A stretch of DNA of 49,911 bases from a phage. Of this stretch, positions 10,473-38,726 are shown piece after piece. Location: the sequence record PZ445414.1. The stretch is one strand, 5' to 3'. The stretch's first letter is position 1. Each line of letters starts with the position of its first letter. Below the pieces are notes generated by a model. It did not search any database and was not told the DNA's origin. It saw nothing but the letters and a program-made list of their open reading frames with translations. The translations under genes were made by a program, and so were the position numbers.

Positions 10473-13376
10473 ATGGCAGAACAATACGCAGGTTTGACGT
10501 TAGGCGTTGACGTTCAGCAGGTAAACAACGCAGTTAAATCTCTAAGAGATTTCAAGACTGCCTCAGAGGGTGCGGCTGATGGTCTTGAGTCTTTCGTCAA
10601 TGAGGAGCAGATTGCCCGACAGAGAGCCAAAGATTTGGTCTCCGAGCTTGCAAAGCAGAGAAAGGAATTTCAGAGCGTACAGGCCGCAATAGATCCGACT
10701 GCGGCAAAAATGGAGCGACTAAAGGTTGCGGCGGCTGACCTTGATAAGCTTTGGAAAAAGGGAGTGGTTCCAGACGAGACATTTTTCCAGCTTGGAGAAA
10801 TGCTTGAGGCTCAGACAAACAAGCTTGCAGCAAACAGAAAAGCGTTAACTGCTGAGGGCATGGCGGCAATCGAGGAGTCAAAACAGAAAGCTAAAGCGGC
10901 GGCTGAGGCTAAGAAATTCATTGCGGCTCTTGAGGCGCAAGCGGCTGCGGCTGGTAAAACTCAATCAGAACTGATGGAAATGAAAGCTGCGCAGCTTGGT
11001 GTAAGTGCTCAGGCCGCGCCATTCATTTCACAGCTTAAAGCGCAAGAAAAACAGATGAAGTTAACCGGAATTAGCGCAGGGCAATATAACCAGGCTATGC
11101 GAATGCTTCCGGCTCAGATCACTGACGTTGTAACGTCGCTTGCTTCCGGTATGCCTGTTTGGATGGTTGCAATTCAGCAGGGCGGGCAGATTAAGGACTC
11201 TTTCGGCGGCATTGGTAATACGTTTAAAGCGTTGTTGTCGTTTCTGAATCCGGTAAACGTTGGCCTTGCAGCATTAGCCGTTTCAATGGGTGCTCTTGTT
11301 AAGGCTGGTTATGATGCGTATAAATCACAACGTGACTTGCAAGAGGCATTGGTTCTGACTGGTGGATACGCTGGCACAAGCGGCGCACAGTTTGATAAGC
11401 TGGCGCAGGACATTAATAACAGCACTGATGCGACGATAGGAAATATCCGATCCATCGCAACAGAGCTTGCAAAGTCCGGCAAGTTCACGATTGATCAGAT
11501 TAAAGCAATCACGAAAACCACCGCTCAGTGGTCAACTGTAACTGGTGAATCAAGCGACAAGATAACCGATTACTTTAATAAGATTGCCGGAGATCCGGTT
11601 AAAGGTCTTGCAGAGCTAAACGAGCAATTCAACTTTTTAAGCGAAGGGCAGTTAACTTATATTGCAGATCTTGAGAAAACGAAAAGCAAGACAGAAGCAG
11701 TAACGACGGCAACAAAGTTATTTGCTGATGTTATGGATCAGAGGTTAGCTGAACTGGCGGACTCCGCAACGCCATTAGAAAAGATGTGGACTGACATTAA
11801 AAAATGGGCGTCAGATGCGTGGGGTTGGGTTGGTGATCATACTCTGGCGGCGCTTAACCTGATCATTGACGTTGTAGCTGGAACGGTTGAGCAGGTTCGT
11901 TATTTGCTTAATCAGGGTGATATTCTCATTGGTGAGTTTATTGTATCTGCAACAAAGGCTATGCAAAAAATACCTGGTCTTGATGGCGTTGGTGACTCAG
12001 TAATTGCACAGCAACAGAATATTATCAATAACGCTAAGGAGAACAACAAGGAGCTATTAAAATCAATTGCCGAACGTAACGAGCGAGTCAAAAAAGGCGA
12101 GCAGGGTTACATTGACATGATGAAAAATCGTGCAGCGGTTGAACAGCAATATGCGACAAAAACAAAAGAGAATATCAGGAAGGAAGCCGAGGAATTAGCT
12201 AAGCGCGATAAAAAGCAAAAGGCTGAAAAAGCTAAGGTATCGGCTGGCGATAAGCTGGAAGAACAATATCAGCGTGATATCCTTGCGCTAGAAACTCAAT
12301 TAAGAGTTTTGAAAGAGCACAAGACGATCACAGATACCATAAGCCAGCAACGTAAATCTTTATGGGCTGAACAAGCTAAAATTCAGATTTTGCAAGAAGC
12401 CTCAACAAAACGGCAACTTACTGATGAAGAAAAAAGCATTTTAGCCAACAAAGATAAGATCCTAGCGATGGCTGAACAAAAAGCTATTTTGGGCGATCAG
12501 ATTGTTGCGCAAACGCGCCTTAATCAGTTGCAAGATAGCTCAATCAAGTTTATCCAGCAGCAGAAAGCAGCAACGGAAGCACTAGCAAAAACCAGAGGGT
12601 TAAGCGAGCGTGAAGCAGCAAGAGCGGCGGAACGTGCAAAGGTTGAATCTGATTATCTTGCTAAGGGAGGACAGAAAGAAGATCCGCAACTTAAAGCCAT
12701 GATGGATGCCTTAGACAACCGCTATAAAGAGGAAGATGCTAAACGTGCTGATTGGTTGGCTGGCGCTAAAAATGCCTTTGCGGAGTACGGAGAAGAAGCA
12801 ATGAACATGTATGATAATATCGGCAACATTGCGAGCCAGGCGCTAAACGGCCTATCGCAGCAAATGGCTGATTTTTTGACTACTGGACAAGCCAACTTCA
12901 AAGACTTTGCAAAATCAATCATTAGCCTGATTGTTCAGATGATCACAAAAATGGTTATCTTCAATAGCATTTCCGGCATGATGGGAGGCTCAACGTGGAC
13001 TATGGGATCTCTAATGAGCGGCTTCTCGTCTGGTGGGTACACTGGCGACGGCGGCAAGTATGATCCGGCTGGCATTGTTCACAAAGGCGAGTTTGTTTTC
13101 ACCAAGGAAGCAACGCAGCGAATCGGGGCGCGTAACCTTTACCGCCTGATGCGTGGATATGCCAACGGCGGCAGTGTTGGCGGTTCCGGTTATAGCAGGG
13201 CTTCAACTGGCGGCGCTGGACTTGCTTACTCGTTCGGTGATATCAACGTTGATATCAACAACGGAAACGATCCAAAAGGTCTTGAAACTGGTGTTAGAAT
13301 GCTGGTTACTGATATGCTCAAGCGTGAAATGGGTCAAGGCGGCAGCATTTACAATTTCGTTATGGAAAGGAGGTAA
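10473..13376 (+). CDS. tail tape measure protein
   Basis: 967 aa, long Ala/Gln/Lys-rich helical N-terminal region, hydrophobic segments, Gly-rich C-terminus; located between G/GT and M-L-K-I. Confidence 0.85.
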
Positions 13377-15267: not shown

Positions 15268-15866
15268 TGCAGACACTAAAGAGAATTAAGCTTTCCGGCT
15301 CGCTGGGGCGGCGTTTCGGCGTTTTTCATGAGCTAGCCGTCGAATCATACCCCGAAGCAATTCGTGCGCTCTCCGTTTCGCTGGGTGGCTTTAAAGACTA
15401 TATGCAAAGTGAAGTTGGATCGCGTATGCACTACGCTGTTTTTGTTGATGGGAAAAATGTAGGTCAGTATGACGAAAAGGCGTGGAAGTGCGGCAAGGAA
15501 ATCCGAATCATTCCGATCCCGTCCGGCTCAAAATCTGGCGGATTGTTCCAGGTTGTTTTAGGCGCAGCAATCATGGCTACGGCGTTCTTTACTGGCGGTG
15601 CATCACTTGCCGCAATGGGCGCTCTATCCTCCTCAGCGTTCATGATGGGTGGCGCTATGGTTTTGGGCGGTGTTATGCAGATGATATCACCACAGCGCGG
15701 CGGAATGCAGATGGAGGTAAAGAGCACGGAAAATAAGCCGTCCTACGCGTTCGGAGGTGCTGTAAACACAACTGCGGCAGGTTATCCGCTACCGCTGCCA
15801 TACGGTTATCGAACCGTTGGCGGAGCTATCTGGAGTTCGGGAAGCTACGCAGAGGACAAAGTATAA
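15267..15866 (+). CDS. tail assembly protein I (lambda gpI-like)
   Basis: 199 aa, Gly/Ala-rich hydrophobic C-terminal half; ATG overlaps K stop; followed by terminator. Confidence 0.7.
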   Translation: MQTLKRIKLSGSLGRRFGVFHELAVESYPEAIRALSVSLGGFKDYMQSEVGSRMHYAVFVDGKNVGQYDEKAWKCGKEIRIIPIPSGSKSGGLFQVVLGAAIMATAFFTGGASLAAMGALSSSAFMMGGAMVLGGVMQMISPQRGGMQMEVKSTENKPSYAFGGAVNTTAAGYPLPLPYGYRTVGGAIWSSGSYAEDKV

Positions 15867-15872
15867 AATAAA

Positions 15873-15895
15873 CCCCGCATTGCGGGGTTTTTTAT
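15873..15895 (+). terminator. intrinsic terminator after gpI-like gene
   Basis: ccccgca ttgc ggggg-like stem ccccgc/gcgggg + ttttttatt. Confidence 0.75.
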
Positions 15896-15899
15896 TGGT

Positions 15900-15908
15900 T
15901 GCTATAAT
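15900..15908 (+). promoter_or_regulatory. extended -10 element TGCTATAAT immediately after terminator
   Basis: tgctataat; upstream of J. Confidence 0.45.
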
Positions 15909-15918
15909 GCAACCTCAA

Positions 15919-15938
15919 AACAGCACAAATTGTTAAAA
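15919..15938 (+). promoter_or_regulatory. box variant (AACAGCAC-N5-GTTAAAA) in leader of J gene
   Basis: aacagcacaaattgttaaaa downstream of TGCTATAAT. Confidence 0.4.
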
Positions 15939-15953
15939 CTGGAGGCCAAAATT

Positions 15954-18900
15954 ATGATAAGCGGCAATAAGGGCGGCTCCTCTAAGCCGTACAAGCCAAA
16001 GGAGATGGAGGACAACCTGATCTCCATCAACAAAATCAAAATCCTCCTGGCGGTTTCAGACGGAGAGGTAGACGGCGAGTTTTCGCTAAAAAATCTCTAC
16101 CTTGACGACGTGCCAGTGCAAAACGCAGACGGATCGCTTAACTATAGCGGTGTTAGTGCTGAGTTCCGGCCAGGCACTCAAACGCAGGACTACATCAAGG
16201 GATTTTCAGACACGTCAAGCGAAATCACGATTCAGCGAGATCTGGCGCAGAATAACCCTTACAGCATTGCGGTAACAAACAAATCACTATCTGCTATCAG
16301 GATCAAAATCCTGATGCCTCAGGGCTACAAGCAGGAGGATAACGGCGATCTTGTTGGTGTTTCTGTGCAGTACGCAGTTGATATGGCAGTTGATGGCGGT
16401 TCGTTTAAGCGCGTGCTAACTGATACAATCACTGGTAAAACGACTAGCGGCTACGACAGGAGCCAGCGCATTGACCTGCCAAACTTCAACGAGCAGGTGA
16501 TTTTGCGAGTTAGTCGAGTTACGGAGGATTCAACATCAAGCCGCCTTGTCGATAAAATTCGTTTGCAGAGCTATGCGGAGGTTGTTGATGCAAAATTCCG
16601 TTATCCTCTGACTGGTTTAGTTTACGTTGAGTTTGATAGCGAGCTTTTCCCTAACCAGCTACCAAACATTTCTATCAAGAAGAAATGGAAGCTGATAAAC
16701 GTTCCTGTTAACTACGATCCAGAATCACGCGAATACTCAGGAAGCTGGAACGGTCTGTTTAAAAAGGCTTGGAGCAACAACCCAGCTTGGGTTCTGTATG
16801 ACCTGATCACCAATCAGCGCTACGGGCTAGACCAAAGAGAGCTTGGGATTGAGATTGACAAGTGGAGCATCTACGAGGCAGCACAGTATTGCGATCAGAT
16901 GGTTCCAGATGGCAAAGGAGGACTAGAGCCTCGCTATCTGTGTGATGTTGTTATCCAGAGCCAGATTGAAGCGTTTAACCTGATCCGTGATATTTGCTCT
17001 ATCTTCCGTGGCATGAGCTTTTGGAACGGAGAGAGCCTTTCTATCGTGGTGGATAAACCGCGTGATCCGTCTTACATTTTCAGTAATGACAACGTGGTTA
17101 ACGGCGATTTCCAGTACACCTTTGCAAGCGAGAAAAGCATGTACACGCAGTGTAACGTGACTTTCGACGACGAGCAAAACATGTACAGCCAGGATATTGA
17201 GGGCGTTTTCGACACTGAGGCCGCTTTGCGCTTTGGTCACAATCCGACAAGCATCACAGCAATCGGATGCACACGACGCAGCGAGGCGAACCGCCGAGGG
17301 CGCTGGATTCTCAAGACCAACCTGCGCAGCACCACGGTAAACTTTGCAACTGGTCTTGAGGGCATGATCCCGACAATCGGAGATGTGATCGCAATCGCGG
17401 ATAACTTCTGGGCTAGCAACTTGACGCTTAATCTTTCTGGGCGCGTCATGGAGGTTTCAGGGCTGCAAGTTTTCCTCCCGTTCCGAGTTGATGCGAGGCC
17501 TGGTGATTTTATCCTGATCAACAAGCCGGACGGAAAGCCAGTTAAGCGCACTATTTCACGAGTTAGCGCAGACGGGAAAACTATTGAGTTAAACGTTGGC
17601 TTTGGTTTCGACGTTAAGCCGGACACGGTTTTCGCAATCGACAGGACTGATCTTGCGTTGCAGCAGTACGTTGTTACCGGAATAACCAGGGGCGACGATA
17701 CGGAGCAATTCACGTACTCAATAACGGCTGTCGAATACGATCCAAACAAGTACGACGAGATTGATTACGGAGTGAACATTGACGACAGGCCAACAAGCAT
17801 TGTAAACCCTGGCGTGATGAAAGCGCCTGAAAATGTGCAGGTGTCCTCTTACTCTCGCATTGTTCAGGGGCAGAGCGTAGAAACGATGGTTGTTAGCTGG
17901 GATAAAGTCGAATACGCAAGCTTGTACGAGGTGCAATGGAGAAAGGACAATAGCAACTGGCTAAACGTTCCTCAGACTGCAAACAAAGAGGTTAGCGTTG
18001 AGGGTATTTACTCAGGCAACTACTTTGTAAGGGTTCGATCAGTATCCGCGTCTGGAAGCACGTCGCCGTGGTCTAGTGTTGTTTCAGCCGCATTAACTGG
18101 CAAGGTTGGCGAGCCTAAAATGCCTATTAACTTGACCGCCTCAGATAATGAGATATTTGGGATCCGCGTCAAGTGGGGTATACCTGAGGGTGCTGGCGAT
18201 ACTGCTTACATAGAGCTACAGCAAGCGCCGGACGTAGACGGAATGGCTAGCGAAGAAAACGCAACACTGCTAACTCTCGTTCCGTATCCTCAAATGGAGT
18301 ATTGGCACGCAACGTTACCACCTGGATATATCAACTGGTATCGAGTGCGAAGTGTTGACAGGATCGGAAACGTTTCTGCGTGGACTGACTTTGTGCGCGG
18401 TATGTCGTCAACTAACGTTGATGATATTTTAGGCGACATTCTTGATGATATTTTAAACTCTGCTGGGTTTGAGGAGTTCAAAGAGAATGCCGTAGATACT
18501 GCAAACAAGGTTAAAGACCAGGCGCAAAGCGTGATCCAGAATGCGCTAGCTATTGATACCAATCTGCGTTGGAACCGAGTAGAAAACGGGAAGCGTAAAG
18601 CGGAGCACGGACAGGCGCTTGAGCTTATCGCAAACGAAACAGAGGCGCGAATTCAGGCGGTTGAGGTTCTGCGAACTGAGTTTGACGAGGGCATCTCCTC
18701 TAACATTACAGAAGTCAAGAAATTGATTTCTAACGAGGCGGAAACGCGAGCGAGCCAGGTTCAGCAGTTAGACGCTACATTCACGAAAAAAGTTTCTGAC
18801 GTGAATGGTAGGGTTGACGGTGTTTCTCAAGAGATCGTTAAGACAAACGCAAACGTGAGTAGCGCACAGCAAGCGATTGCAAACGAGACTGAGGCAAGGA

Positions 18901-27706: not shown

Positions 27707-29707
27707 ATGGCAATTCCAAATATTGACAAACAGCTTTCCGCTTTGGGTGAAGCGGTAATCAAGGCGATTCAAGATCGCTTTACGTTTGGCGGAATCACCC
27801 CATACCCTTACCAGTGCGTTGCGTACACTGAGATCGCAAAACGCATGAAAAATTACGAACATCCTTTCTTTGTGAAAGCGTCCGTATCTGCTGGCAAAAC
27901 AATGATTTTTGCAATGGTCGCGGCGCAGTGTCAGAGGATGGGGCTTAAAATGATGGTTCTCGCTCGCCAGGGTGAGATTGTGGATCAGGATTCAGAGGAG
28001 ATCAGTAATTTCGGAGTGCCTAACTCCGTCTACTGCGCGGCGCTGAAACTCAAGGGCGTACACTTCCCCATCGTGGTTGGCTCTGAGGGAACCGTTTCAA
28101 ACGGACTCTTTAAGGCGCTGGGCGACTACGTGCCGCACGTTATCGGGATTGACGAATGCCACCAGGTAGATTGGGAGGATTTAGCGGAGGCAATCGAAAA
28201 CGATGAGCCGTGGCAGCAAATGACCACGAAAAAAGGCGAGATTGTCCTGAATGGTGACGGCTCCCGCGCTCTCAACAATGACGGTGAGCCAATGGAGGGA
28301 ACCGGACGCACGCAATACACTCTTATAATTCGAGAAATGCAGCGCCGATGCAAAGAGACATACGGGCATGAGTTGCGCATTTTTGGAATGACTGGATCAG
28401 AATTTCGCGGCGTTGTTCCAATCCTGGTAGAAGATAAGCGCCAGCGCGGTTTCTGGCGTGAACAGGTGACGAACATTGATACCAACTACCTTATCAAGTT
28501 CGGCTCCGTTGTGCCTACAAACTTTGGCGGCGTAGATGGATTGGGTTATGACCTTTCAGAGTTCACCGCATCCAGCGAGGACGGAGTAGCAGACTTTGAC
28601 CAGAAAACCCTCCGAAAGATGGAGGAGAAGATCCATAAAGATGCAACCATGACGCAAAAAATCATGGCACGCGTGCATGAGATCTGCAAAGACCGCAACG
28701 GCGTGCTGGTAACTTGCGCTGGAGAGCGTCACTGCAAAGAGGCTGCCGCCGCACTTCCGCCAGGGGCAACATACAGGATCATCACTGGCAAGACCGGAGA
28801 GAAACAACGTAAAGAATGGTTAAAAGAGGCATTCGAGGGAAAAGTAAAATACATTTTCCAGGTTCAAGCACTAACAACTGGCGTAAACGTTCCATATTGG
28901 GATACGTCCGTTATCCTGCGCAAAATAGGATCGCTTACTCTGCTGATCCAGCTTTTGGGGCGCGGTATGCGACTTTTAAAGAAATGGCACATCGAGCAAG
29001 GATTCAAAAAAGACGATCACCTTGTTCTCGACTTTGCCGGATGCATGGACGAGTTGGGGCAGCTTTACTTTGATCCTATTCTGGAACAGGCGCAATATCA
29101 GCGACGTGGCGATAACGGAAAGGATCCCAAATTCTGCCCTGACTGCGGCACTGAAAACTCATTCTATGCACGCCGTTGCGTTCACGTTGACGAAAACGGG
29201 AATCGATGCGAGTATTTTTGGAAGTATCGAGAGTGCGAGGATCAGGTAGACCCGCGCACTAAAAAGGTTATCGTCAAAGGCTGCGGCACTAAAAACGACA
29301 TAGCCGCCAGGGTTTGCCGCTGCTGTGATGTGTCGCTCATTGACCCGAACGAAAAACTATCAGGCAAGCACTACACTAAGAATGATTGGTGCAATGTGAA
29401 ATCTTTCCGTGTCGATATGACCAAAAACCAGAGAGGGATCGTGTTCTGTTATGAGCTTGAGGCGCACGGGGAAACGTTCAAGGCTTATGAGCGATTCTTC
29501 CCTGAGTCTGACAACCAGATCTGCAAGACGCTATGGAGGCAAACGGCGCTCAAGCATATTGCAGATCGCAGGATTGCAGGTGTTACGGCGAGCTATCGCA
29601 ACGCTCGCAAGATTATGCAAAACGCGCATCACATTATGGCTCCGAAACGCGTTACGCATCGCAAAAACGCGAAAGGAGAGGACATTATTTATCATCGGGA
29701 GTTTTGA
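27707..29707 (+). CDS. ATP-dependent helicase (SF2, DEAH-like)
   Basis: 666 aa; Walker A SVSAGKTM, motif II GIDECHQV; C-terminal Cys clusters. Confidence 0.7.
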   Translation: MAIPNIDKQLSALGEAVIKAIQDRFTFGGITPYPYQCVAYTEIAKRMKNYEHPFFVKASVSAGKTMIFAMVAAQCQRMGLKMMVLARQGEIVDQDSEEISNFGVPNSVYCAALKLKGVHFPIVVGSEGTVSNGLFKALGDYVPHVIGIDECHQVDWEDLAEAIENDEPWQQMTTKKGEIVLNGDGSRALNNDGEPMEGTGRTQYTLIIREMQRRCKETYGHELRIFGMTGSEFRGVVPILVEDKRQRGFWREQVTNIDTNYLIKFGSVVPTNFGGVDGLGYDLSEFTASSEDGVADFDQKTLRKMEEKIHKDATMTQKIMARVHEICKDRNGVLVTCAGERHCKEAAAALPPGATYRIITGKTGEKQRKEWLKEAFEGKVKYIFQVQALTTGVNVPYWDTSVILRKIGSLTLLIQLLGRGMRLLKKWHIEQGFKKDDHLVLDFAGCMDELGQLYFDPILEQAQYQRRGDNGKDPKFCPDCGTENSFYARRCVHVDENGNRCEYFWKYRECEDQVDPRTKKVIVKGCGTKNDIAARVCRCCDVSLIDPNEKLSGKHYTKNDWCNVKSFRVDMTKNQRGIVFCYELEAHGETFKAYERFFPESDNQICKTLWRQTALKHIADRRIAGVTASYRNARKIMQNAHHIMAPKRVTHRKNAKGEDIIYHREF

Positions 29708-29709
29708 AT

Positions 29710-30126
29710 ATGGTTACTGACAAAGGCGATTATCTGGAATATTACGAGAGGGATCCGAGCGATACGCGCAAGGAAGATTCTCACCAGGTTGATTGTGTGG
29801 CGTGGTTGCGCCACCACTACCCACACTTGCTCTTTTGGCACACTGTAAACGAGGGGAGCAAGACAATCACCGCCGCGCTGCGTGACGAACAGGCCGGATT
29901 GCTAAAGGGCGTATCAGACTTTGTTATCCTGATTGGTTCTGGTAAATACCCGTTTGCAGCCATAGAGCTAAAGCAAGCCAACAAATCAGGCAAGCGCAAG
30001 GCTTCACCAGTCAGCGACAACCAGAAAGCTTTCTTGAGCAGGGTTAGACACTTGGGAGGTTTCGCAGCCGTTTGCTATGGCGTGAAGCAATTCAAGCTTG
30101 CAATTGCAGATCTCTTGCAGGAATAG
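29710..30126 (+). CDS. VRR-NUC domain nuclease
   Basis: 138 aa; motif DFVILIGSGKYPFAAIELKQ (D..E.K) typical of VRR-NUC; start ATG right after helicase stop. Confidence 0.6.
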   Translation: MVTDKGDYLEYYERDPSDTRKEDSHQVDCVAWLRHHYPHLLFWHTVNEGSKTITAALRDEQAGLLKGVSDFVILIGSGKYPFAAIELKQANKSGKRKASPVSDNQKAFLSRVRHLGGFAAVCYGVKQFKLAIADLLQE

Positions 30127-30478: not shown

Positions 30479-31225
30479 ATGGCTAAAGACGTTCTGGATA
30501 ACTCAACAATCGACGGTATCGAGCAGGTTGATGAAATGGACTTTCACGAATTGCAGCACGGCAAGTATTCAGACATAACCCTGCGCTCAGGCGGTCACTA
30601 CCAGGCCGTGAAACCATGCCAGTATTACAAGGTTACAGGCAACCGTTACGCCGGAAGCAACACTCCAGATGTTGTCCGTGACCTTTGGGCTACTCCGCGC
30701 GATGTTGTCGCGTATATGGAAAGCCGCTACGGTAAATATGATCTTGACGCTGCGGCTAGTGAGGACAATAAAGTCTGTGAAAAATTCTACAGCAAAGAAA
30801 CAAACTGCTTAAAGCGTTGGTGGGGTAGCAAGAAGCACGTATGGCTGAATCCTCCATATTCTAATCCAGATCCGTTTGTGCTCAAGGCCATTGAGCAAAT
30901 GGAGCACGAAAACCAGATCGACATATTGCTTCCAGCCGATAACTCAACGGCATGGTTTAGCGATGCGCAAAAGCACGCTGCGGAAATTATCTGGATCACT
31001 GGCGAAACCTGGAAAGATGAAGATGGGCGCGAGTATTCACGAACCGGACGATTAGCGTTTATTTCCGGCCTGACAGGTGAGCCAGTTAGCGGCAACAACA
31101 AAGGCAGCGTGATCTTTGTCATGCGCAAATTGAAAGAGGGCGAAACGCAGCAAACTCACTACGTGAAAATCAGCGATATTTGCACGTCTGTAAAAAACAA
31201 GCGAGCCAAAGCAAGGAGTTTTTAA
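30479..31225 (+). CDS. dam: DNA N6-adenine methyltransferase (phage Dam family)
   Basis: 248 aa; motif IV WLNPPYS (NPPY) and DLDAAAS SAM-binding-like motif. Confidence 0.75.
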   Translation: MAKDVLDNSTIDGIEQVDEMDFHELQHGKYSDITLRSGGHYQAVKPCQYYKVTGNRYAGSNTPDVVRDLWATPRDVVAYMESRYGKYDLDAAASEDNKVCEKFYSKETNCLKRWWGSKKHVWLNPPYSNPDPFVLKAIEQMEHENQIDILLPADNSTAWFSDAQKHAAEIIWITGETWKDEDGREYSRTGRLAFISGLTGEPVSGNNKGSVIFVMRKLKEGETQQTHYVKISDICTSVKNKRAKARSF

Positions 31226-31335
31226 TGAAAGATGATATTTCAGCACTTGGAATGCTTTGTGCATTCATGATCGGCGGCGGTTTTTGTTCTTACGCGCTCA
31301 TTGCGCTAATCATCAAAGTAGGGGAGTTGATTTAA
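31225..31335 (+). CDS. small hydrophobic peptide (36 aa)
   Basis: ATG overlaps dam stop (TAATG); single predicted TM segment; not in ORF track because <60 aa. Confidence 0.3.
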   Translation: MKDDISALGMLCAFMIGGGFCSYALIALIIKVGELI

Positions 31336-31583
31336 TGGGCGAGAGAAATGTAACACTAAACGAGACTGGTTTATTTCTGCTGTATCGCGCTATGGTGTGC
31401 CAGGCTATTGACCTAAATCCACACATTAAGGATGTAATAGAGGTTGACCCGTGGGAGTATTCCAGCGCTCTTGACATGAGCTTTGAGGAAACCGCAAAAC
31501 TACCTCTTGAGAAGTGGCATATCAAGATTGCTGATGATCTGGATGAAATGTGGCAAGACCTTAAAAAGCGAGTTGCTCACTAA
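31335..31583 (+). CDS. hypothetical protein
   Basis: 82 aa from ATG 31335 (TAATG coupling); ends at box. Confidence 0.4.
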   Translation: MGERNVTLNETGLFLLYRAMVCQAIDLNPHIKDVIEVDPWEYSSALDMSFEETAKLPLEKWHIKIADDLDEMWQDLKKRVAH

Positions 31584-31602
31584 ATAGCACTTTTTGTTAA
31601 AA
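31583..31602 (+). promoter_or_regulatory. conserved box + hairpin + CATAAT
   Basis: aatagcactttttgttaaaa; hairpin gcccg...cgggc. Confidence 0.55.
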
Positions 31603-31659
31603 ATGCCCGGCGAAAGTCGGGCATAATTATTTCCAACGAAAACCACTGAGGAAAACGAA

Positions 31660-31851
31660 ATGAAAATTTACAGCAAACGCTCTTTCAAAATCGCTCAGGA
31701 ATTAGCACGCGAGGCGGTAGCAGGAGGAAGCGAAGGGGGATACGGTTTCGATTGGGATATAGCAATGATTTACTTGCAGATGGCAACAGGTCACGCTCCA
31801 ATAGAGAAGATCGAGCAGGTTGATCGCATGGTTGAGGAGGGATTGGTTTAA
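31660..31851 (+). CDS. hypothetical protein
   Basis: 63 aa; box promoter and conserved leader upstream; SD GAGGAA. Confidence 0.5.
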   Translation: MKIYSKRSFKIAQELAREAVAGGSEGGYGFDWDIAMIYLQMATGHAPIEKIEQVDRMVEEGLV

Positions 31852-32099
31852 TGAAGGTTGAGCAAGGCCGCGAGGCCGTTTGGAATCACGCCAAAGAAAC
31901 CGGAATGGCAGACGATATAGCACGAATTGCTAAAATATTTGATCTGGCTGATGTTAGTATTATCAGCAACGGGAAAATGACTTACTTGCACGAGAGGCCG
32001 CGCAAAATGCACCGCGTGCCAGCAAACCCGACAAAAATTGACTTCAAAGAAGCAATGGCAAAAATCAGAGAGCCGAAAAAGTATTACAAAGGAGAATAG
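31851..32099 (+). CDS. hypothetical protein
   Basis: 82 aa; TAATG coupling to upstream ORF. Confidence 0.45.
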   Translation: MKVEQGREAVWNHAKETGMADDIARIAKIFDLADVSIISNGKMTYLHERPRKMHRVPANPTKIDFKEAMAKIREPKKYYKGE

Positions 32100-32104
32100 T
32101 TATC

Positions 32105-32179
32105 ATGTGGCGCTTGCTTGTTCTTCCAATGCCCGTTATCATTGCCGCCGTTGTTATGTACGCACTTGTTATGTGATTT
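32105..32179 (+). CDS. tiny hydrophobic peptide (24 aa)
   Basis: ATG after AAAGGAG; single hydrophobic stretch; very short. Confidence 0.2.
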
Positions 32180-32193
32180 AAGAGGAAAAATTA

Positions 32194-33312
32194 ATGATTC
32201 AGAAAATGACAGATCAGCAGTTTAAAGACGCACGAGCGGAGGGTAAAACCTACAAGCAGATCGCGGAGGAGTTCGGCTTGAATGTTCGCACCGTTGAGCG
32301 CCGCGCCGCTCGCCTGGCTCGCGCAGGTGAAACCGAAATCAAAGGAGCACCAGGTTTTGCGGTTGTTCGTGAGTCAGTCCTTACCCGCGCAAACGGCGAA
32401 GAAGTGATGCGCTGGACTATCACCAACAAAGATAAAGAGCAGTTGGAAGCACTCATGCAAGCCGCGATGGATGCATTTGCTGAGGAAGTTCCGCGCCTTG
32501 AGCCTCAGCCGGAAAGCCGAAAGGACTACAGCGAAAGCCTGGCGCTATACCCTATCTTTGACATGCACATTGGCGCAATGGCTCACAAGCATGAATGTGG
32601 TGAGAATTGGGACACGGCAACAGCCGAGAAGGTCATGAATGACTTCTTTGATTATGCGGTTGAGTGTGCGCCAAATAGCGAGAAAGCCGTGCTCCTGATT
32701 GGTGGAGACATGCTTCACAGTGACGGCCTGGAGGCTGTAACACCTGCCAGCGGTCACGTTCTGGATCAGGATAGCCGCTACGCCAAACTTGTTTATGTCG
32801 CAATCCGAGCAACTCGCCGCGCTATCTCATTGATGTTGACCAAGCACAAAGAAGTTGAAATTCAGGTAATCGAGGGCAATCATGACCAATCAGGCATGAT
32901 CTGGCTACGCGCAGCAATGGCTGCGGCATACGAGGACGAGCCGCGCGTGATGGTTGATGTTTCACCTCGCGTAGTGCATCACACGCAGTACGGAAAAACA
33001 TTCCTCGCGTATCATCACGGTCACACCGTGCGCAAGCCGGAAACGTTATTGATGATGTGTGCGGCAGATTGGCGAGAGGATTTTGGCAAATCAAAATCAA
33101 TGTATGCTCATGTAGGCCATTGGCATCACCAGACCGTAACAGAAACCAGCCTGGGTATTGTTGAAGTTCACAGCACTATGGCGGCTAAAGATGCGTATGC
33201 GGCACGTGGCGGCTGGCGCTCTCGTCGTCGCGCTGCGGTTATAATCTACGACAAAGAGCACGGCGAGATCGGTCGATTCATGTTCTACCCTGAAATGATG
33301 GAGTCAAAATAA
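32194..33312 (+). CDS. metallophosphoesterase (calcineurin-like) with N-terminal HTH
   Basis: motifs DMH, GDMLHSD, GNHDQ, YHHGH, HVGHWHH; N-terminal YKQIAEEFGLNVRTVERR HTH-like segment. Confidence 0.6.
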   Translation: MIQKMTDQQFKDARAEGKTYKQIAEEFGLNVRTVERRAARLARAGETEIKGAPGFAVVRESVLTRANGEEVMRWTITNKDKEQLEALMQAAMDAFAEEVPRLEPQPESRKDYSESLALYPIFDMHIGAMAHKHECGENWDTATAEKVMNDFFDYAVECAPNSEKAVLLIGGDMLHSDGLEAVTPASGHVLDQDSRYAKLVYVAIRATRRAISLMLTKHKEVEIQVIEGNHDQSGMIWLRAAMAAAYEDEPRVMVDVSPRVVHHTQYGKTFLAYHHGHTVRKPETLLMMCAADWREDFGKSKSMYAHVGHWHHQTVTETSLGIVEVHSTMAAKDAYAARGGWRSRRRAAVIIYDKEHGEIGRFMFYPEMMESK

Positions 33313-33482
33313 TGAAGGTTAAATGCGTTGAGAATTCATCTAAAACACTGCCTTACTACGAGGGCTTTGTGTACGAGGCCGATCCATTACCTGGCGGGAT
33401 GTACAAGATTAAAGATGAATCAGGGCAGCATATTATTGCGCCGCTAAAAGGGCATTATCTGGAGTTTTTACAGATTGATTAA
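33312..33482 (+). CDS. hypothetical protein (56 aa)
   Basis: ATG overlaps upstream stop (TAATG); followed by intrinsic terminator. Confidence 0.35.
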   Translation: MKVKCVENSSKTLPYYEGFVYEADPLPGGMYKIKDESGQHIIAPLKGHYLEFLQID

Positions 33483-33506
33483 CATTTAATTTCATGAGCT
33501 TACAAA

Positions 33507-33534
33507 GGGCTGGCGTTTGCTAGCCCTTTTTTTA
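33507..33534 (+). terminator. intrinsic terminator before lysis cassette
   Basis: gggctgg cgtttg ctagccc ttttttt. Confidence 0.65.
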
Positions 33535-33609
33535 TTGTTTCGCTTTTGCTCATTGCTGGTTAACATACACTCACTTAATTATTGACATTTTGCACGAGGA
33601 GGTTAGATC

Positions 33610-33825
33610 ATGAGAGAATTTTTAAACGCAGCAACCACCAGCACCGGAGGCGCATCACTGACGGGCGCGGCGACGGGGCAAATTACCATTGCGGTTGCTG
33701 GTCTTATCCTAATGGCGGCTTTCGGCTTTTGGGGCGCGTATCTGCGCTGGAAGGATAGCAAGGCGCTGCGAGAGGCTTTGGATCGTGAAGATATCAAAGA
33801 GGCAATTCGAATCAGGGGGAAATAA
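33610..33825 (+). CDS. holin (pinholin-like)
   Basis: 71 aa; Gly/Ala/Ser/Thr-rich weakly hydrophobic TMD1 then hydrophobic TMD2, charged C-terminus; directly upstream of SAR-type endolysin; SD GAGGAGG. Confidence 0.65.
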
Positions 33826-33827
33826 TC

Positions 33828-34322
33828 ATGAGTTTACAGAGAAGCGCGGCATACGCTTTATTTGGCGCTGCGCTCTCGTTAACTTCTCCGCTCCTGGAGG
33901 AGATCGAGGGCATCCGGTACAAGCCTTATAAAGATATTGCCGGAATCTGGACAGTCTGCGCGGGTATTACCGGATCTGACGTTGTGCTTGGTAAGACGTA
34001 CACGCAGAGAGAATGTGACGCACTTCTTGCCAAGCATATCGGGATTGCAAAGGCAGAAGTCGATAAGCGCGTAAATGTTGAGATACCGGACACTATGCGT
34101 GCGGCAATGTACTCCTTTACGTACAACGCTGGTACTGGAGCGTTTCGCAAGTCAACCATGCTCAAGAAGATCAACAATGGCGATCTTTATGGGGCGTGCG
34201 ACGAGCTTTGGAAATGGACGTATTACTACAATCCAAAAACGGGAAAGCGCGAGAAGTCCAAAGGTTTAAAAAACCGTCGCGCGGTTGAGTATAAATATTG
34301 CACTAAGGATCTGAAAAAATGA
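33828..34322 (+). CDS. endolysin, lysozyme (GH24-like) with N-terminal SAR-like segment
   Basis: [26 protein letters not shown] and [13 protein letters not shown] closely parallel phage 21-type SAR lysozymes as recalled; N-terminal [18 protein letters not shown] weakly hydrophobic. Confidence 0.75.
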
Positions 34323-34714
34323 AACGATTAGCTTTGGCGGTACTGGTTGCCGCCTCTCTTTCTGGTTGTTCAGCGTCAAGCGCTCTGAGCGGTTTAATCG
34401 GCAGCAAGCCGGAAATCACAGCACAGGCCGGAGCCGAAAACGTAAAGCAAACAGTAGGCGTGACGGCAAAGAATGACGAGAGCAGCAAGCAGGAAAACAC
34501 GATCAAGGATTCGCAGGTTGGCAAGGTTGACTCCTCCAACAAAAAGAAGGTGAGCACTTCAAGCATCCAGGCTGAGACAATCACAGCCGACAAGATCGAG
34601 ATCAGAAACAGCGAGAGCGATTTGTATGTGATGTTCTTTGCGCTTGCTTGCTTATTTGTTGCTGGCTTTGCCGCTGGCGTTTTTTGGAAGGGCAGAAAAA
34701 ATAAAGGGGCATAA
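34319..34714 (+). CDS. unimolecular spanin (lipoprotein with C-terminal TMD)
   Basis: N-terminal lipobox LSGC, C-terminal TM helix [22 protein letters not shown]; position after endolysin, as for T1 gp11-type u-spanins. Confidence 0.7.
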
Positions 34715-34727
34715 TGCCCCTTTTTTC
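34706..34727. terminator. bidirectional terminator after spanin gene
   Basis: aaaggggc ataat gcccc tttttt. Confidence 0.7.
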
Positions 34728-34917
34728 ATTCCAGTAGTCTGACGTTGACTAATACAACTCCGTCCTCGTCGTGCAGGTTGTGCTCCTTTGCCGGATTAGC
34801 TCGCATATCGCTGTACAGGATCAGGAGCAGCGCCGCAATCATTTCGTCATGCGATACCGAATTTTTTGCGCAGTGCATCATAATCGCATCTATTAGATTT
34901 TGTGTTGAATAATTCAT
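34726..34917 (-). CDS. hypothetical protein (uncertain start)
   Basis: 63-aa ORF overlapping end of 34847..35239; real start may be internal. Confidence 0.25.
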   Translation of the reverse strand: MNYSTQNLIDAIMMHCAKNSVSHDEMIAALLLILYSDMRANPAKEHNLHDEDGVVLVNVRLLE

Positions 34918-35239
34918 CGTCGCTTAACTCGTCAAGGTGAAACAGATCGTAAATGTATTTATTGCTCTCACCCTCCAGGCTATACAGTTCAAACCCAAAC
35001 GGCCTCTTGTGCGAGCCGTGGCACGTCACTACGCCTTTATCTATCCCAAGATATCCCAATGTAGCCATTCGCGGGATAAACTCAAGAGAAACGCTTGAGG
35101 CGAATTTGCGAGGAGTCATATTGGCGGCTCTTGCGAGCCGCTCACATTCTTTGTGCTGAAAAACAAATCTGGCTAAGTGCTGACGGTTAAACCAATCGTA
35201 ACTTTCGCAAAACTTATACAGATCCAGCAGAAACATCAT
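34847..35239 (-). CDS. hypothetical protein
   Basis: 130-aa ORF; ATG shortly after stop of upstream P-loop gene. Confidence 0.45.
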   Translation of the reverse strand: MMFLLDLYKFCESYDWFNRQHLARFVFQHKECERLARAANMTPRKFASSVSLEFIPRMATLGYLGIDKGVVTCHGSHKRPFGFELYSLEGESNKYIYDLFHLDELSDDELFNTKSNRCDYDALRKKFGIA

Positions 35240-35242
35240 TTA

Positions 35243-36820
35243 TCACCCCATTAAAGCAGGATTCACAAACACGCGCCCATTCGTGAGGCATACGTAATTC
35301 AGATCTTCAAGGATTGGCAGTAAGTGATCTTCAATTCGCTTCATCACGCCAGCCTGACCTAAGAACGGACGAACCTTTCGCACAGATTCGTAAATCGCTC
35401 GCGCAGTGATAGCGCCCTTGTTGGCTTTTCCGAGTCTGGTTATCGTGTCGATAATCTTGATCAACTCTGCATCCTGACCAGCATGACCGGAGGCGTTTGC
35501 CGCGCTAATGTAGGTCTTGCTCAACTCCTGGAACATCAAGAGCGCCTCCTGCATCGTCTCAACGTCAATCTCTCGTGACTTTGTGGCGGTTCCGTTAACA
35601 TCCTGCCAGTTTCGGATCGTGTGAATAACGGATGCCAGGCGAATGACTTGTTTATCCATTTTACCCAACGCGCCGCGTAGCATGGTGTGAGAATATTCTC
35701 CTCCGTCTGCAAGCTTTGGCTCCATTTCCTGGCGTGCCATGTTGAGCACTCGCATAGCGGAGCGGCTAACCTTTAATGAAACGGATTGCTCCATCATGAT
35801 ATTATGGATCAGCTTGTAATAATCCGCCTTAAGACCTGCATCAACTGGCGTGTAGGTTGTGTCTCCGTTGTCGTCAACGAATTTACGGCGGCCTAAGAAT
35901 GACTCCTCGCGCACCAGCAGGAAACGCTCAGAAACACCGATACCACGAGCACCAGCCTCCATAATGCCGCTGATTGTTTCGTCCTGCGCAATCACAGCCA
36001 TGCAGCCGAGAGCCGTAAAGCTCATGTTGTTTTCTGCAGTTGCACGGGCAATGGAAACGTGACCGCTATCCCAAGCCTTTAGCACCAATTCGCTGTTAGT
36101 CTTGCGCTCGCTATTGGCGTATGTCAGACCGAGCAGTGAGTTGATACTTGTTGCCTCGTCCGAGATAACAGCAAAGTTGCCCTGGCGGAAGTTGATTTTA
36201 GCCAAACCCTCTGGAGTGGTGTCTGAAACCGGAAACACCACATCGCACAGTTTTGCAAGCTTTTCCTCATACTCCTCTTTTTCCTCGTAAAGAGCGGCAT
36301 ACTCAGTGCCGGAGCGCTCGCTCTTTAATTCCTTTACGATCCCGTTGAGTTTGGCCTGAATCTTTTTGCGCTCTTTCTTGCGTTGCTCGTTGATGCTCTC
36401 AACCTCTGCAACAATCGGAGCAATAGCCATTGAGTTGATCGCGGATTTACCAGTAGACGGCGGCTGGCTGGTAACAACGTATAGCGCCGTTGGCTGATCG
36501 GTTCCGTGGTACTCCACGGTGAATCGTCCGAGCATTGCGGCAGACACGCAGCCTACAAAGTGCATATAGGCAGATGAAACAGGGAATTGCACAGACTCCG
36601 CCAGGCTGCGAGACAACTTGCCTACAACGTCGCAATCGTTGCCGAGGGAAATAACAGGGTATTTGTCGTTTCCGCTGTTAATGTCCTTCACGTCACCCCA
36701 AAAACCAGACGAGCGAGAGTATCCGTTTGCCTGGATTGCAACCTTAACGGCGCTCAAGCCTTGAGCCTCAGCCGTTGAAATGATTTGTTGTGGTGTCAGC
36801 GTGGATTGTTCAAAAAACAT
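35243..36820 (-). CDS. P-loop NTPase (putative replication/DNA-metabolism ATPase)
   Basis: 525 aa; Walker A-like SQPPSTGKSA; box promoter with hairpin-embedded TATAAT upstream. Confidence 0.45.
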   Translation of the reverse strand: MFFEQSTLTPQQIISTAEAQGLSAVKVAIQANGYSRSSGFWGDVKDINSGNDKYPVISLGNDCDVVGKLSRSLAESVQFPVSSAYMHFVGCVSAAMLGRFTVEYHGTDQPTALYVVTSQPPSTGKSAINSMAIAPIVAEVESINEQRKKERKKIQAKLNGIVKELKSERSGTEYAALYEEKEEYEEKLAKLCDVVFPVSDTTPEGLAKINFRQGNFAVISDEATSINSLLGLTYANSERKTNSELVLKAWDSGHVSIARATAENNMSFTALGCMAVIAQDETISGIMEAGARGIGVSERFLLVREESFLGRRKFVDDNGDTTYTPVDAGLKADYYKLIHNIMMEQSVSLKVSRSAMRVLNMARQEMEPKLADGGEYSHTMLRGALGKMDKQVIRLASVIHTIRNWQDVNGTATKSREIDVETMQEALLMFQELSKTYISAANASGHAGQDAELIKIIDTITRLGKANKGAITARAIYESVRKVRPFLGQAGVMKRIEDHLLPILEDLNYVCLTNGRVFVNPALMG

Positions 36821-36876
36821 CTTAAAGTCTCCTTGTTGGTTGACCTGTATTATAGGTCAACCATCTTACAGCCTTT

Positions 36877-36896
36877 TGGCAATTCGTGCTATTTTA
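36877..36896 (-). promoter_or_regulatory. conserved box upstream of P-loop ATPase gene
   Basis: minus AAAATAGCACGAATTGCCAA; TATAAT inside hairpin GGTTGACC/GGTCAACC. Confidence 0.5.
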
Positions 36897-37134
36897 AACG
36901 TTCAACTTTTGCGAGAAGTTTCGATCCGTCATGGCTCCAGCATTCGAGCGTCTCAGGATCAAAGTCTAAAGACCTGTGGAATGTGTGACCAATCAGCAGA
37001 TATCCGCCGCGCTGACGAATCTGATAAACCGTTTCGCCAACCGTGAATATTGAAATGTCGCTGTATGTCACCTTGAATCTGTTAGCCAGCATACTCTTTG
37101 GTATGTGGCGAGTGTATTCTACGCCTTGAATCAT
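36889..37134 (-). CDS. hypothetical protein
   Basis: 81 aa; ATGA coupling with upstream ORF. Confidence 0.4.
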   Translation of the reverse strand: MIQGVEYTRHIPKSMLANRFKVTYSDISIFTVGETVYQIRQRGGYLLIGHTFHRSLDFDPETLECWSHDGSKLLAKVERLK

Positions 37135-37496
37135 GAGTATTTCGCCTGGAATAAGTAAGCCCCACCAGCAGAGAAACCAACCTCCTCCCGATACAGAGTG
37201 AATCGGTCGCCGTCCTCGTCAAACACATAGCCAGCAACTCCGCCCAATACGCGCCCTTGTTCGATCTGGTAGCGCTTGCCAGCCTTAAACGTTTTCTTGT
37301 GCTTCATGCTATGGTCTACCCAAGTGCATTTTATCGTTTTGGTCTTGATCTCACGGAAGTCATTAAAATTTGCGTGCTCCCACTTTGCGCCTTTGGTTAA
37401 TTCCTTGACCTGGAAAGCGCCAGTTTCAAAGAATTGAACCTCGTCAACAATGCGAGCTTTCATTAATTTGTTGTCGGCGTTGCGGATAACTTTCAT
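37131..37496 (-). CDS. hypothetical protein
   Basis: 121 aa from ATG 37496 (SD GGAG); coupled to neighbours. Confidence 0.45.
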   Translation of the reverse strand: MKVIRNADNKLMKARIVDEVQFFETGAFQVKELTKGAKWEHANFNDFREIKTKTIKCTWVDHSMKHKKTFKAGKRYQIEQGRVLGGVAGYVFDEDGDRFTLYREEVGFSAGGAYLFQAKYS

Positions 37497-37498
37497 GA

Positions 37499-37705
37499 TC
37501 ATTTCTCCATCCATTTACGATATTTGGTTAACTGGTTCATTGAGGACAAAATGCCTTGCTCTTTCATGTTGCTTGCGCGGTAAATCTCAGCTAAATAAGT
37601 CTCGCCGTTGTATAGATAAACAGAGCCGCGAAAGGTTTTCAGCTTTGGATTATCAAGACCTGCAATCATTGCCAGGAAATCCGCTTTCTTAGTCATGTGA
37701 GCCAT
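37499..37705 (-). CDS. hypothetical protein
   Basis: 68 aa from ATG 37705 after conserved leader and GAGGA; box promoter at 37764-37784. Confidence 0.45.
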   Translation of the reverse strand: MAHMTKKADFLAMIAGLDNPKLKTFRGSVYLYNGETYLAEIYRASNMKEQGILSSMNQLTKYRKWMEK

Positions 37706-37763
37706 TTGTTTTATCCTCAATTCGTTTCGTTGAGAAGATAATAGCGGATCTTATCGACCCGCT

Positions 37764-37784
37764 TTTAACAAAAAGTGCTATTTT
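37764..37784 (-). promoter_or_regulatory. conserved box (minus)
   Basis: minus AAAATAGCACTTTTTGTTAAAA; overlaps MTase stop TAG; TATTAT and leader CTCAACGAAACGAATTGAGGA follow. Confidence 0.55.
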
Positions 37785-38491
37785 GAGTTTGCAAGCCATA
37801 CAGCAATAGCCAGGCCGCGAGGAGTGAGCGAGCGAATCAGTTTTGTTCGCGCTGATTTACCGCCTAATTTCTTCCAGCCTGGATTATCATTCCCAACCGG
37901 ATCCACTGGCAAAGCCTCAGGCATCACAAAGCCGTTACCAGTCCAAAGGCAAGTTTGCTTATTGTAAGCGTCACTCGATGGGATGATATCAGGAAAAGCA
38001 GGGTGAGCTTCATCCTTGATATGGATATAGCCGCCATAGTCGCACGGATGAAATTTGTGATCCGGCTTGCGCCATAGCGTTGACAGCTTGCCTACAGGGT
38101 TTTCGATCATGTACGGAGCACCGAAGTGATCAGCAATCTCCGCCGCAATCTTGCAGGTAGTCGCCGCCTTGACCTGGAAATCTGGATCAATCTCAGCTTT
38201 GCGCTTCCAGTGGCGAGAGCCGGAGTTTGCCAGGTCAGTACATGGAGGAAACGCCATAACGAAATCAGGTTTACCCCAAAGCAGGTTGCACGCGCTCGCC
38301 TTGAAATCCTCGTCAATCCAGGCGTTAACGTAGCTGATATTGGGATGCATTACGCGCACTGACTGGTACGAACCGTGATCGCCTTCATCGGCATTGAAGC
38401 AGACGACTTTATAACCAGCTTTCGCCCACGGCAGCGCCGCATAGCCGGAGCCGTCGAACATTGAGAAAACCAGGCCTTTACGTTCAAACAT
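37778..38491 (-). CDS. DNA (cytosine-5)-methyltransferase-like protein (compact)
   Basis: 237 aa from ATG 38491 (SD AGGTG); motif I-like FSMFDGSGYA, PC motif AFPPCTDLANSG, ENV motif MIENPVGKL. Confidence 0.5.
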   Translation of the reverse strand: MFERKGLVFSMFDGSGYAALPWAKAGYKVVCFNADEGDHGSYQSVRVMHPNISYVNAWIDEDFKASACNLLWGKPDFVMAFPPCTDLANSGSRHWKRKAEIDPDFQVKAATTCKIAAEIADHFGAPYMIENPVGKLSTLWRKPDHKFHPCDYGGYIHIKDEAHPAFPDIIPSSDAYNKQTCLWTGNGFVMPEALPVDPVGNDNPGWKKLGGKSARTKLIRSLTPRGLAIAVWLANSK

Positions 38492-38501
38492 ATCTATCAC
38501 C

Positions 38502-38726
38502 TCAGAACGGGAAGCAACGTTTGCAAGCCGGATCAAAATCACAGCCGCAGTCATTTACAATCATGGTTGGATCGGCAAACATCGCTCCGCTTTCCATATC
38601 CATATCCATATCGCCAAGCGCATCATCAAGCGTGCGCAGTTTATAAGCAACCTCAAGCGCTGCCTCTTTATTTAGTCCAGCCGCCTCCGCCTCTTGCAGA
38701 CGGGCAAAGAAACCATCTTGTGCCAC
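38502..38726 (-). CDS. hypothetical acidic protein
   Basis: 74 aa, GTG start after GGAG; Cys-rich C-terminus (CGCDFDPACKRC). Confidence 0.4.
   Translation of the reverse strand: MAQDGFFARLQEAEAAGLNKEAALEVAYKLRTLDDALGDMDMDMESGAMFADPTMIVNDCGCDFDPACKRCFPF

Follow-up and report, generated by a model that had tools for sequence, protein, structure and literature searches.

An orphan T1-type Dam and a probable compact C5-cytosine methyltransferase in the genome of coliphage IsaakIselin

Work in the 1980s characterized the DNA adenine methyltransferase (Dam) of coliphage T1 as a methylase of GATC. DNA of the phages T1 and TLS is reported to be adenine-methylated at its more than 200 GATC sites as judged by digestion with Sau3A, MboI and DpnI (PMC11447400), and N6-adenine as well as C5-cytosine methyltransferases are abundant in the Drexlerviridae (Maffei et al. 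2021, PMC8594841). Phage methyltransferases are also seen by retrons. Dam of phage Bas51 triggers two retrons (PMC12548924), and Wang et al. obtained mutants of phage K42, a KarlJaspers strain, that escape retron Ec86 (bioRxiv 10.1101/2023.08.16.553469; later Cell Rep 2024;43:114857). In all four K42 escapers, a dcm gene of 711 bp or the sequence just upstream of it was mutated. Expression of this gene was toxic only when retron Ec86 was present, and mass spectrometry coupled to liquid chromatography (LC-MS) detected high levels of 5-methylcytosine (5mC) on retron DNA with wild-type K42 Dcm and not with the C82A/E128A/K175A/K176A variant (bioRxiv 10.1101/2023.08.16.553469). Here, we analyzed a pair of genes from Escherichia phage IsaakIselin, bas10_0037 and bas10_0052, that correspond to these two types of enzyme. 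IsaakIselin is a T1-like coliphage (Drexlerviridae, Tempevirinae, Henuseptimavirus). The window, by which we mean the whole stretch of 49,911 nucleotides analyzed (PZ445414.1), is the complete genome of this phage (Bas10 of the BASEL collection, MZ501077.1) in rotated form (megablast 100%), and a window position equals the MZ501077.1 record position minus 533.

In GenBank, bas10_0037 is a "Dam-like N6-adenine methyltransferase" (window 30479..31225, plus strand) and bas10_0052 a "Dcm-like C5 cytosine methyltransferase" (window 37778..38554, minus strand). Both methyltransferases had thus been annotated before and relatives of both have been studied, so that this interpretation is correct and not new. 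Taken together, our data make it very likely that IsaakIselin encodes an orphan GATC Dam along with a compact, 5mC-forming C5-methyltransferase that probably acts at CCWGG; within this reading, the site of the compact enzyme is the part to which we give only a modest preference. For the IsaakIselin proteins themselves, both the activity and the sites methylated are inferred by analogy to the enzymes of their relatives.

A first-pass annotation of the window had taken bas10_0037 for a Dam-type N6-adenine methyltransferase carrying the motifs DLDAAAS and NPPY. The open reading frame (ORF) and both motifs are indeed present (Table 1), and the assignment was confirmed by profiles and homology. The product matched the Pfam family Dam (PF05869) with an E-value of 1.8e-62 and 210.4 bits (cutoff 28.1) over residues 59-244, the NCBIfam equivalog TIGR01712 (phage_N6A_met) with 4.8e-58 and 195.4 bits (cutoff 97.05), and PHROG 111 with 1e-83. 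Its sequence identity is 68% with T1 Dam (E 2.7e-106), 82% with TLS Dam (E 9e-144) and 72% with KarlJaspers Dam, and alignment to the latter showed that DLDAAAS and NPPY are both kept. Apart from an N-terminus slightly longer than that of T1 Dam (the alignment begins at residue 17), we found no substantial difference to T1 Dam or TLS Dam. Features held in common with T1 Dam and TLS Dam are the NPPY motif, the genome position and the lack of a partner restriction enzyme: in IsaakIselin, T1, TLS and KarlJaspers alike, the dam gene lies downstream of helicase and VRR-NUC genes, and no restriction enzyme adjoins bas10_0037, whose neighbors encode small hypothetical proteins, the VRR-NUC protein and a helicase. 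A solved structure homologous to bas10_0037 was not detectable by sequence. The enzyme would use S-adenosylmethionine (AdoMet) to methylate the N6 position of adenine, most likely within GATC, on replicating phage DNA. Progeny DNA would thereby become resistant to GATC-cutting restriction enzymes independently of the limiting Dam of the host.

We compared gene content and site frequencies across nine phages, using a maximal-order Markov model to calculate expected counts. The ratio of observed to expected GATC sites was 0.77-1.12 in phages carrying a T1-type Dam, namely IsaakIselin (315 observed vs 301 expected, 1.05), KarlJaspers, TLS, T1 and two Dhillonvirus phages with a distant Dam. Phages without Dam (Rtp, Rogue1 and Klebsiella phage VLCpiS13f) showed ratios of 0.22-0.35. 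This clean split across the nine phages supports that Dam protects GATC. Many GC-rich palindromes are purged from the IsaakIselin genome. GGNCC is missing (40 sites expected, or 167 by base composition), as are GCGCGC (25 expected), RCCGGY (24), CGATCG (15), CCGCGG (12) and GCCGGC (10); TCCGGA and GGCGCC occur once each (26 and 19 expected, respectively), CCSGG is reduced to 4 of 22 expected sites, and GGCC stands at half its expectation over the whole genome. GATC and CCWGG (149 observed vs 138 expected) are among the least-avoided palindromes. This pattern looks like restriction-site avoidance alongside methylation.

The product of bas10_0052 was aligned to 48 diverse relatives, mostly 35-50% identical (residues are numbered from ATG 38491). 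C84, E130, P132, P149, Y176, W183 and P191 were invariant, and F81, P82, T85, N131, R141, K178, T180, R220, S221 and P224, and also G226, were nearly so. Among close relatives, invariance extended to G14, S15 and G16 of the putative AdoMet-binding loop. Since C84 and E130 are invariant and the other residues nearly so, the motifs of this protein are not a product of chance. FDGSG aligned to motif I of DNMT3B (HMMER) as well as to that of HhaI and E. coli Dcm (hhalign), and PPC to the PC motif of DNMT3B, HhaI, HaeIII and Dcm. FDGSG, the Pro-Cys motif and ENPV had already been pointed out in the first-pass annotation; all three are in place, and their catalytic residues are conserved.

The predicted model of bas10_0052 has the fold of a C5-methyltransferase. 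DNMT3B was the best match of the structure search (14.1, 193 residues aligned), followed by CmoX (13.2), the prophage methyltransferase 3g7u (12.3), DNMT1 (11.5), HhaI (11.4), HaeIII (11.3) and DNMT2 enzymes (about 10.5). DNMT3B was also the top PDB match by HMMER (E about 0.08-0.1), the weak alignments kept motifs I, IV and VI in register, and PHROG 757, "DNA methyltransferase", was matched with 6e-85. Moreover, the C5-methyltransferase profile PF00145 was matched at E<10 by 18 of 32 close relatives, with a lowest E-value of 1.3e-6.

Several results speak against a place among the C5-methyltransferases. For both genes the first-pass annotation had suggested profile searches, and these had different outcomes: the Dam profile was matched far above its cutoff by bas10_0037, whereas bas10_0052 stayed below the threshold of PF00145 (E 0.15, 11.9 bits at a cutoff of 22, residues 8-94 spanning motifs I-IV). 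The longer, 258-aa form of the protein gave no Pfam match at E<=0.1, NCBIfam yielded no match, and when the PDB was searched by HMMER, neither the single sequence nor two profiles of the family gave an E-value below 0.07. Aligning the family profile to single HhaI or E. coli Dcm sequences by hhalign covered only motifs I-IV or I-VI and was not significant. In addition, two canonical motifs are not matched. In place of Q-x-R-x-R (motif VIII) the protein reads K178-Q-T180-C-L-W, and in place of G-N-(A/S)-V (motif X) it reads I-R220-S221-L-T-P, with both registers being deduced from a conserved Trp, a predicted strand and the point at which the last helix begins.

A further difference is size. 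Typical C5-methyltransferases comprise 320-480 aa in total (HhaI 327, Dcm 472), and bas10_0052 has no conventional target-recognition domain between motifs VIII and IX. The minimal target-recognition region considered possible in the first-pass annotation was recovered here as a segment of about 28 aa that follows the motif VIII strand and precedes the C-terminal helices. It is the part of the model with the lowest confidence (predicted local distance difference test 65-80). On the basis of conserved motifs and predicted fold, the data support that bas10_0052 encodes a C5-cytosine methyltransferase that is reduced almost to its catalytic core and is remote from the textbook enzymes.

The catalytic domain of DNMT3A/DNMT3B is the nearest fold, at an identity of 14-17%. 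Compared to it, bas10_0052 is shorter by about 50 residues and appears to carry K-x-T for R-x-R in motif VIII and R-S for G-N in motif X, as far as the deduced registers go. The resemblance is a structural analogy and no evidence of close ancestry. With E. coli Dcm/M.EcoRII the protein has in common the GenBank name, the presumed site and colinear motifs I, IV and VI. Homology to E. coli K-12 Dcm was not detected by BLASTP (E 1.3) or by hhalign with the family profile (E 0.11).

CmoX (PDB 8yf3, 372 aa), the second-best structural match, suggests another chemistry, in which the protein would transfer a carboxymethyl group from carboxy-S-adenosylmethionine of the host to yield 5-carboxymethylcytosine. 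CmoX selects its cofactor by means of an Arg that stands where HhaI has Asn304 (PMC12783734), replacing the Asn of G-N, and the conserved R220 of bas10_0052 adjoins the equivalent position. By helix register, however, that position would be S221 and the Arg would lie one residue earlier, so that it seems to replace the Gly. The SPPC motif of CmoX reads FPPC in the phage protein. CmoX usually occurs with CmoA and often with a ligase. Neither CmoA nor an amide ligase is named among the 90 annotated genes of the IsaakIselin genome, not every ORF of which was profile-searched. Above all, the K42 enzyme, 68% identical to bas10_0052, gave 5mC by LC-MS, and we regard a CmoX-like activity as highly improbable.

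The likeness to this K42/KarlJaspers (Bas06) 'Dcm' extends over the full length (236 vs 237 aa). The genes are syntenic and the proteins have the loop sequence DNPGW in common. C82, E128 and K175 of K42 Dcm correspond to C84, E130 and K178 in bas10_0052; the fourth residue exchanged by Wang et al., K176, is Q179 here, a position that varies across the family. That bas10_0052 encodes a catalytically dead or non-DNA enzyme, such as a DNA-binding remnant or a DNMT2-like RNA/tRNA methyltransferase, is hard to reconcile with these data. Neither the nucleophilic Cys nor the Glu of motif VI varies within the family, FDGSG is intact, the close homologue methylates DNA in vivo while its quadruple mutant (Cys82, Glu128 and two lysines) does not, and DNA C5-methyltransferases outrank DNMT2 in both structure searches. 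We consider such a role very unlikely. As a 5mC-forming enzyme, bas10_0052 would act by attack of Cys84 on C6 of a flipped cytosine, with Glu130 engaging N3/N4 of the base; the methyl group would pass from AdoMet to the cytosine, and beta-elimination would free the enzyme and leave 5mC.

The two forms of the protein differ in their start codon. The 237-aa ORF of the first-pass annotation begins at ATG 38491, that of GenBank 63 nt further upstream at ATG 38554 (258 aa). The shorter form is the better supported one because ATG 38491 is preceded by the putative ribosome-binding site GAGGTGA at a spacing of 5 nt, and because it avoids gene overlap and agrees with the layout in KarlJaspers and with the length of homologues. 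ATG 38491 starts 10 nt past the stop of the upstream gene bas10_0053 (stop at 38502), which a start at ATG 38554 would overlap, and ATG 38554 is not preceded by a Shine-Dalgarno sequence. In KarlJaspers, it is the short form of the homologue that is annotated, 9 nt from its upstream gene, and homologues mostly have 227-235 aa and begin where ATG 38491 lies.

Which site the compact enzyme methylates is less clear than its chemistry. In the work on K42, changing CCTGG of the retron hairpin to AATGG, ACTGG or CATGG abolished defense against the phage (bioRxiv 10.1101/2023.08.16.553469), which argues for CCWGG, the site of host Dcm. Site frequencies are suggestive of the same target. The observed/expected ratio of CCWGG was 1.08-1.14 in the three Tempevirinae carriers of the compact enzyme (IsaakIselin, KarlJaspers and TLS), where CCWGG is unavoided, unlike many other GC-rich palindromes, as compared to 0.69-0.83 in the non-carriers T1, which has Dam and no compact C5 enzyme, and Rtp and Rogue1, which have neither. 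CCSGG amounts to 4, 0 and 0 sites in these carriers vs 65, 34 and 18 in the three non-carriers, where its frequency is normal. Methylation covering CCWGG together with site loss covering the remaining CCNGG sites would fit such a purge. In the Dhillonvirus carriers, however, the purge is absent and CCSGG has a normal frequency. We therefore downgraded the purge from evidence for CCWGG coverage to a lineage-confounded hint; its cause may be escape from enzymes that cut CCNGG, or it may be a trait of the lineage.

Other observations count against CCWGG or against protection as such. The comparative CCWGG signal comes from a small sample and is phylogenetically confounded: the ratio was 0.92-0.93 in the two Dhillonvirus carriers and as low as 0.52 in Klebsiella phage VLCpiS13f, which carries a 46%-identical homologue. 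The CCWGG target of K42 Dcm was itself taken from the analogy to host Dcm, with the CCTGG mutants as its sole support, and retron DNA from dcm+ MG1655 with the empty vector contained little 5mC (bioRxiv 10.1101/2023.08.16.553469). Host Dcm left this DNA poorly methylated, and hence the phage enzyme differs from it in site, substrate form or dose. Finally, Maffei et al. found methyltransferase genes to have no simple link to restriction resistance in a panel of EcoKI, EcoCFT_I, EcoRI, EcoRV, EcoP1_I and EcoCFT_II (PMC8594841). In our reading this lack of correlation says little, because none of the six restriction systems targets GATC or CCWGG.

It is a real, if less likely, possibility that bas10_0052 is an active C5-methyltransferase with a target other than CCWGG. 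Such an enzyme might recognize another motif or a shorter one, act preferentially on hairpins, single strands or replicating DNA, or work as a DNMT3-like dimer. DNMT3A and DNMT3B act as dimers. They are the nearest folds and read a site of 2 bp, and the protein has about 28 residues in place of a recognition domain and no detectable relationship to E. coli Dcm. The sequence of the recognition loop falls into subtypes, the depletion of CCWGG in the Klebsiella phage concerns a carrier of a homologue, and on retron DNA the phage enzyme succeeded where host Dcm did poorly. The loss of defense with the CCTGG mutants, the unavoided CCWGG sites and the purged CCSGG sites of IsaakIselin, KarlJaspers and TLS point the other way, and CCWGG remains the target that we modestly favor.

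Enzymes of the compact type are widespread. A word-indexed search returned 6461 matches. At 50% identity the family comprised 2048 clusters, among which 912 lay below 1e-10, and tblastn found it in 1543 of 50,697 phage records (~3%). Members have lengths of about 210-260 aa. The hosts of these genes include Drexlerviridae, Dhillonvirus, Klebsiella siphoviruses, rV5-like and Phi1-like myoviruses, the P1-like phage D6 and an Arthrobacter phage. Their recognition loops read DNPGW in IsaakIselin, KarlJaspers and TLS, YSKQY in Dhillonvirus and MFWGW in a Klebsiella phage. In several remote family members the motif I glycines are gone (for example LYDHST, LFAYTT, LFSKSI, LFNHTP) and the catalytic Cys and Glu are kept, which may indicate altered cofactor binding or inactivity. 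VLCpiS13f (10984..11655, 15659..17190) carries, besides the compact enzyme, a second gene for a DNA methyltransferase, with a ParB-like gene directly upstream; its GATC ratio is 0.22. In addition, the model of the compact methyltransferase was matched by one domain of A0A6J5SE15_1 (BFVD, uncultured Caudovirales phage, 1397 aa, 'Helicase/UvrB, N-terminal') at 27% identity and a template modeling score of 0.66. This predicted structure suggests that the compact methyltransferase domain also occurs fused to a helicase.

The two IsaakIselin genes are separated by about 6.5 kb of unrelated genes (small hypotheticals, a metallophosphatase-type nuclease, a lysis cassette and a DUF3987 helicase). We take their products for solitary (orphan) DNA methyltransferases that belong to separate transcription units and have no restriction enzyme encoded next to them. 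In agreement with the first-pass annotation, the phage may doubly modify its DNA. All features are listed in Table 1.

Table 1. Positions of the two methyltransferase genes, their motifs and neighboring genes in the window
Feature	Position	Strand	Basis
T1-type Dam, orphan N6-adenine DNA methyltransferase, predicted GATC, 248 aa, bas10_0037	30479..31225	+	profiles, homology
DLDAAAS, residues 88-94, cofactor-binding motif I-like	30740..30760	+	translation; within PF05869 match
NPPY, residues 124-127, amino-methyltransferase motif IV	30848..30859	+	translation
Compact DNMT3-like C5-cytosine methyltransferase ('phage Dcm'), probable, 237 aa from favored start, bas10_0052	37778..38491	-	
FDGSG, residues 12-16, motif I, AdoMet-binding loop	38444..38458	-	alignment
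PPC, residues 82-84 (FPPC 81-84), motif IV, catalytic cysteine C84	38240..38248	-	C84 invariant, 48 relatives
ENPV, residues 130-133, motif VI (ENV with inserted Pro)	38093..38104	-	aligned (hhalign) to ENV of E. coli Dcm
KQTCLW, residues 178-183, motif VIII strand, K-x-T for canonical R-x-R	37943..37960	-	conservation, modeled strand 180-185
Residues 186-213 (~28 aa), only segment in target-recognition-domain position	37853..37936	-	between strand 180-185 and helix 214-220 (model)
IRSLTPRG, residues 219-226, motif X-like, R-S for canonical G-N	37814..37837	-	conservation; helix follows at 225-235 (model)
Ribosome-binding site GAGGTGA, 5 nt upstream of ATG 38491	38497..38503	-	sequence
21-codon N-terminal extension (GenBank form, 258 aa), probably untranslated	38492..38554	-	no Shine-Dalgarno, gene overlap
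VRR-NUC nuclease-domain protein	29533..30126	+	PF08774, 1.4e-13; GenBank start = window 29710
PHROG 704 'DNA repair exonuclease', 372 aa, N-terminal helix-turn-helix	32194..33312	+	profile match
DUF3987 helicase	35243..36820	-	annotation/profile match

The site counts support protection of GATC by Dam and weakly support protection of CCWGG by the small enzyme. If CCWGG is its target, methylation would probably confer protection from EcoRII-type and CCNGG-type enzymes. Both types of enzyme also come at a cost, as retron Ec86 responds to methylation by this Dcm family and other retrons respond to a phage Dam (shown for Bas51).

Besides a minor correction of the start codon of bas10_0052, the remaining interest lies in the specificity and recognition mechanism of a widespread family of small C5 enzymes that is present in ~3% of sequenced phages, yet is without a solved structure or a base-resolution specificity. 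We tentatively speculate that this family represents the smallest sequence-specific DNA C5-methyltransferase, reading its site without a conventional recognition domain, and that its true target might differ from CCWGG. If so, recognition would be achieved by a DNMT3-like dimer or by the catalytic loop together with the 28-residue loop, and motifs VIII (K-x-T) and X (R-S) would mark a distinct hold on the flipped cytosine and the cofactor. Phage methyltransferases help to decide which restriction systems are escaped and which abortive-infection systems are set off, which is of relevance when the host range of T1-like phages intended for therapy is to be predicted.

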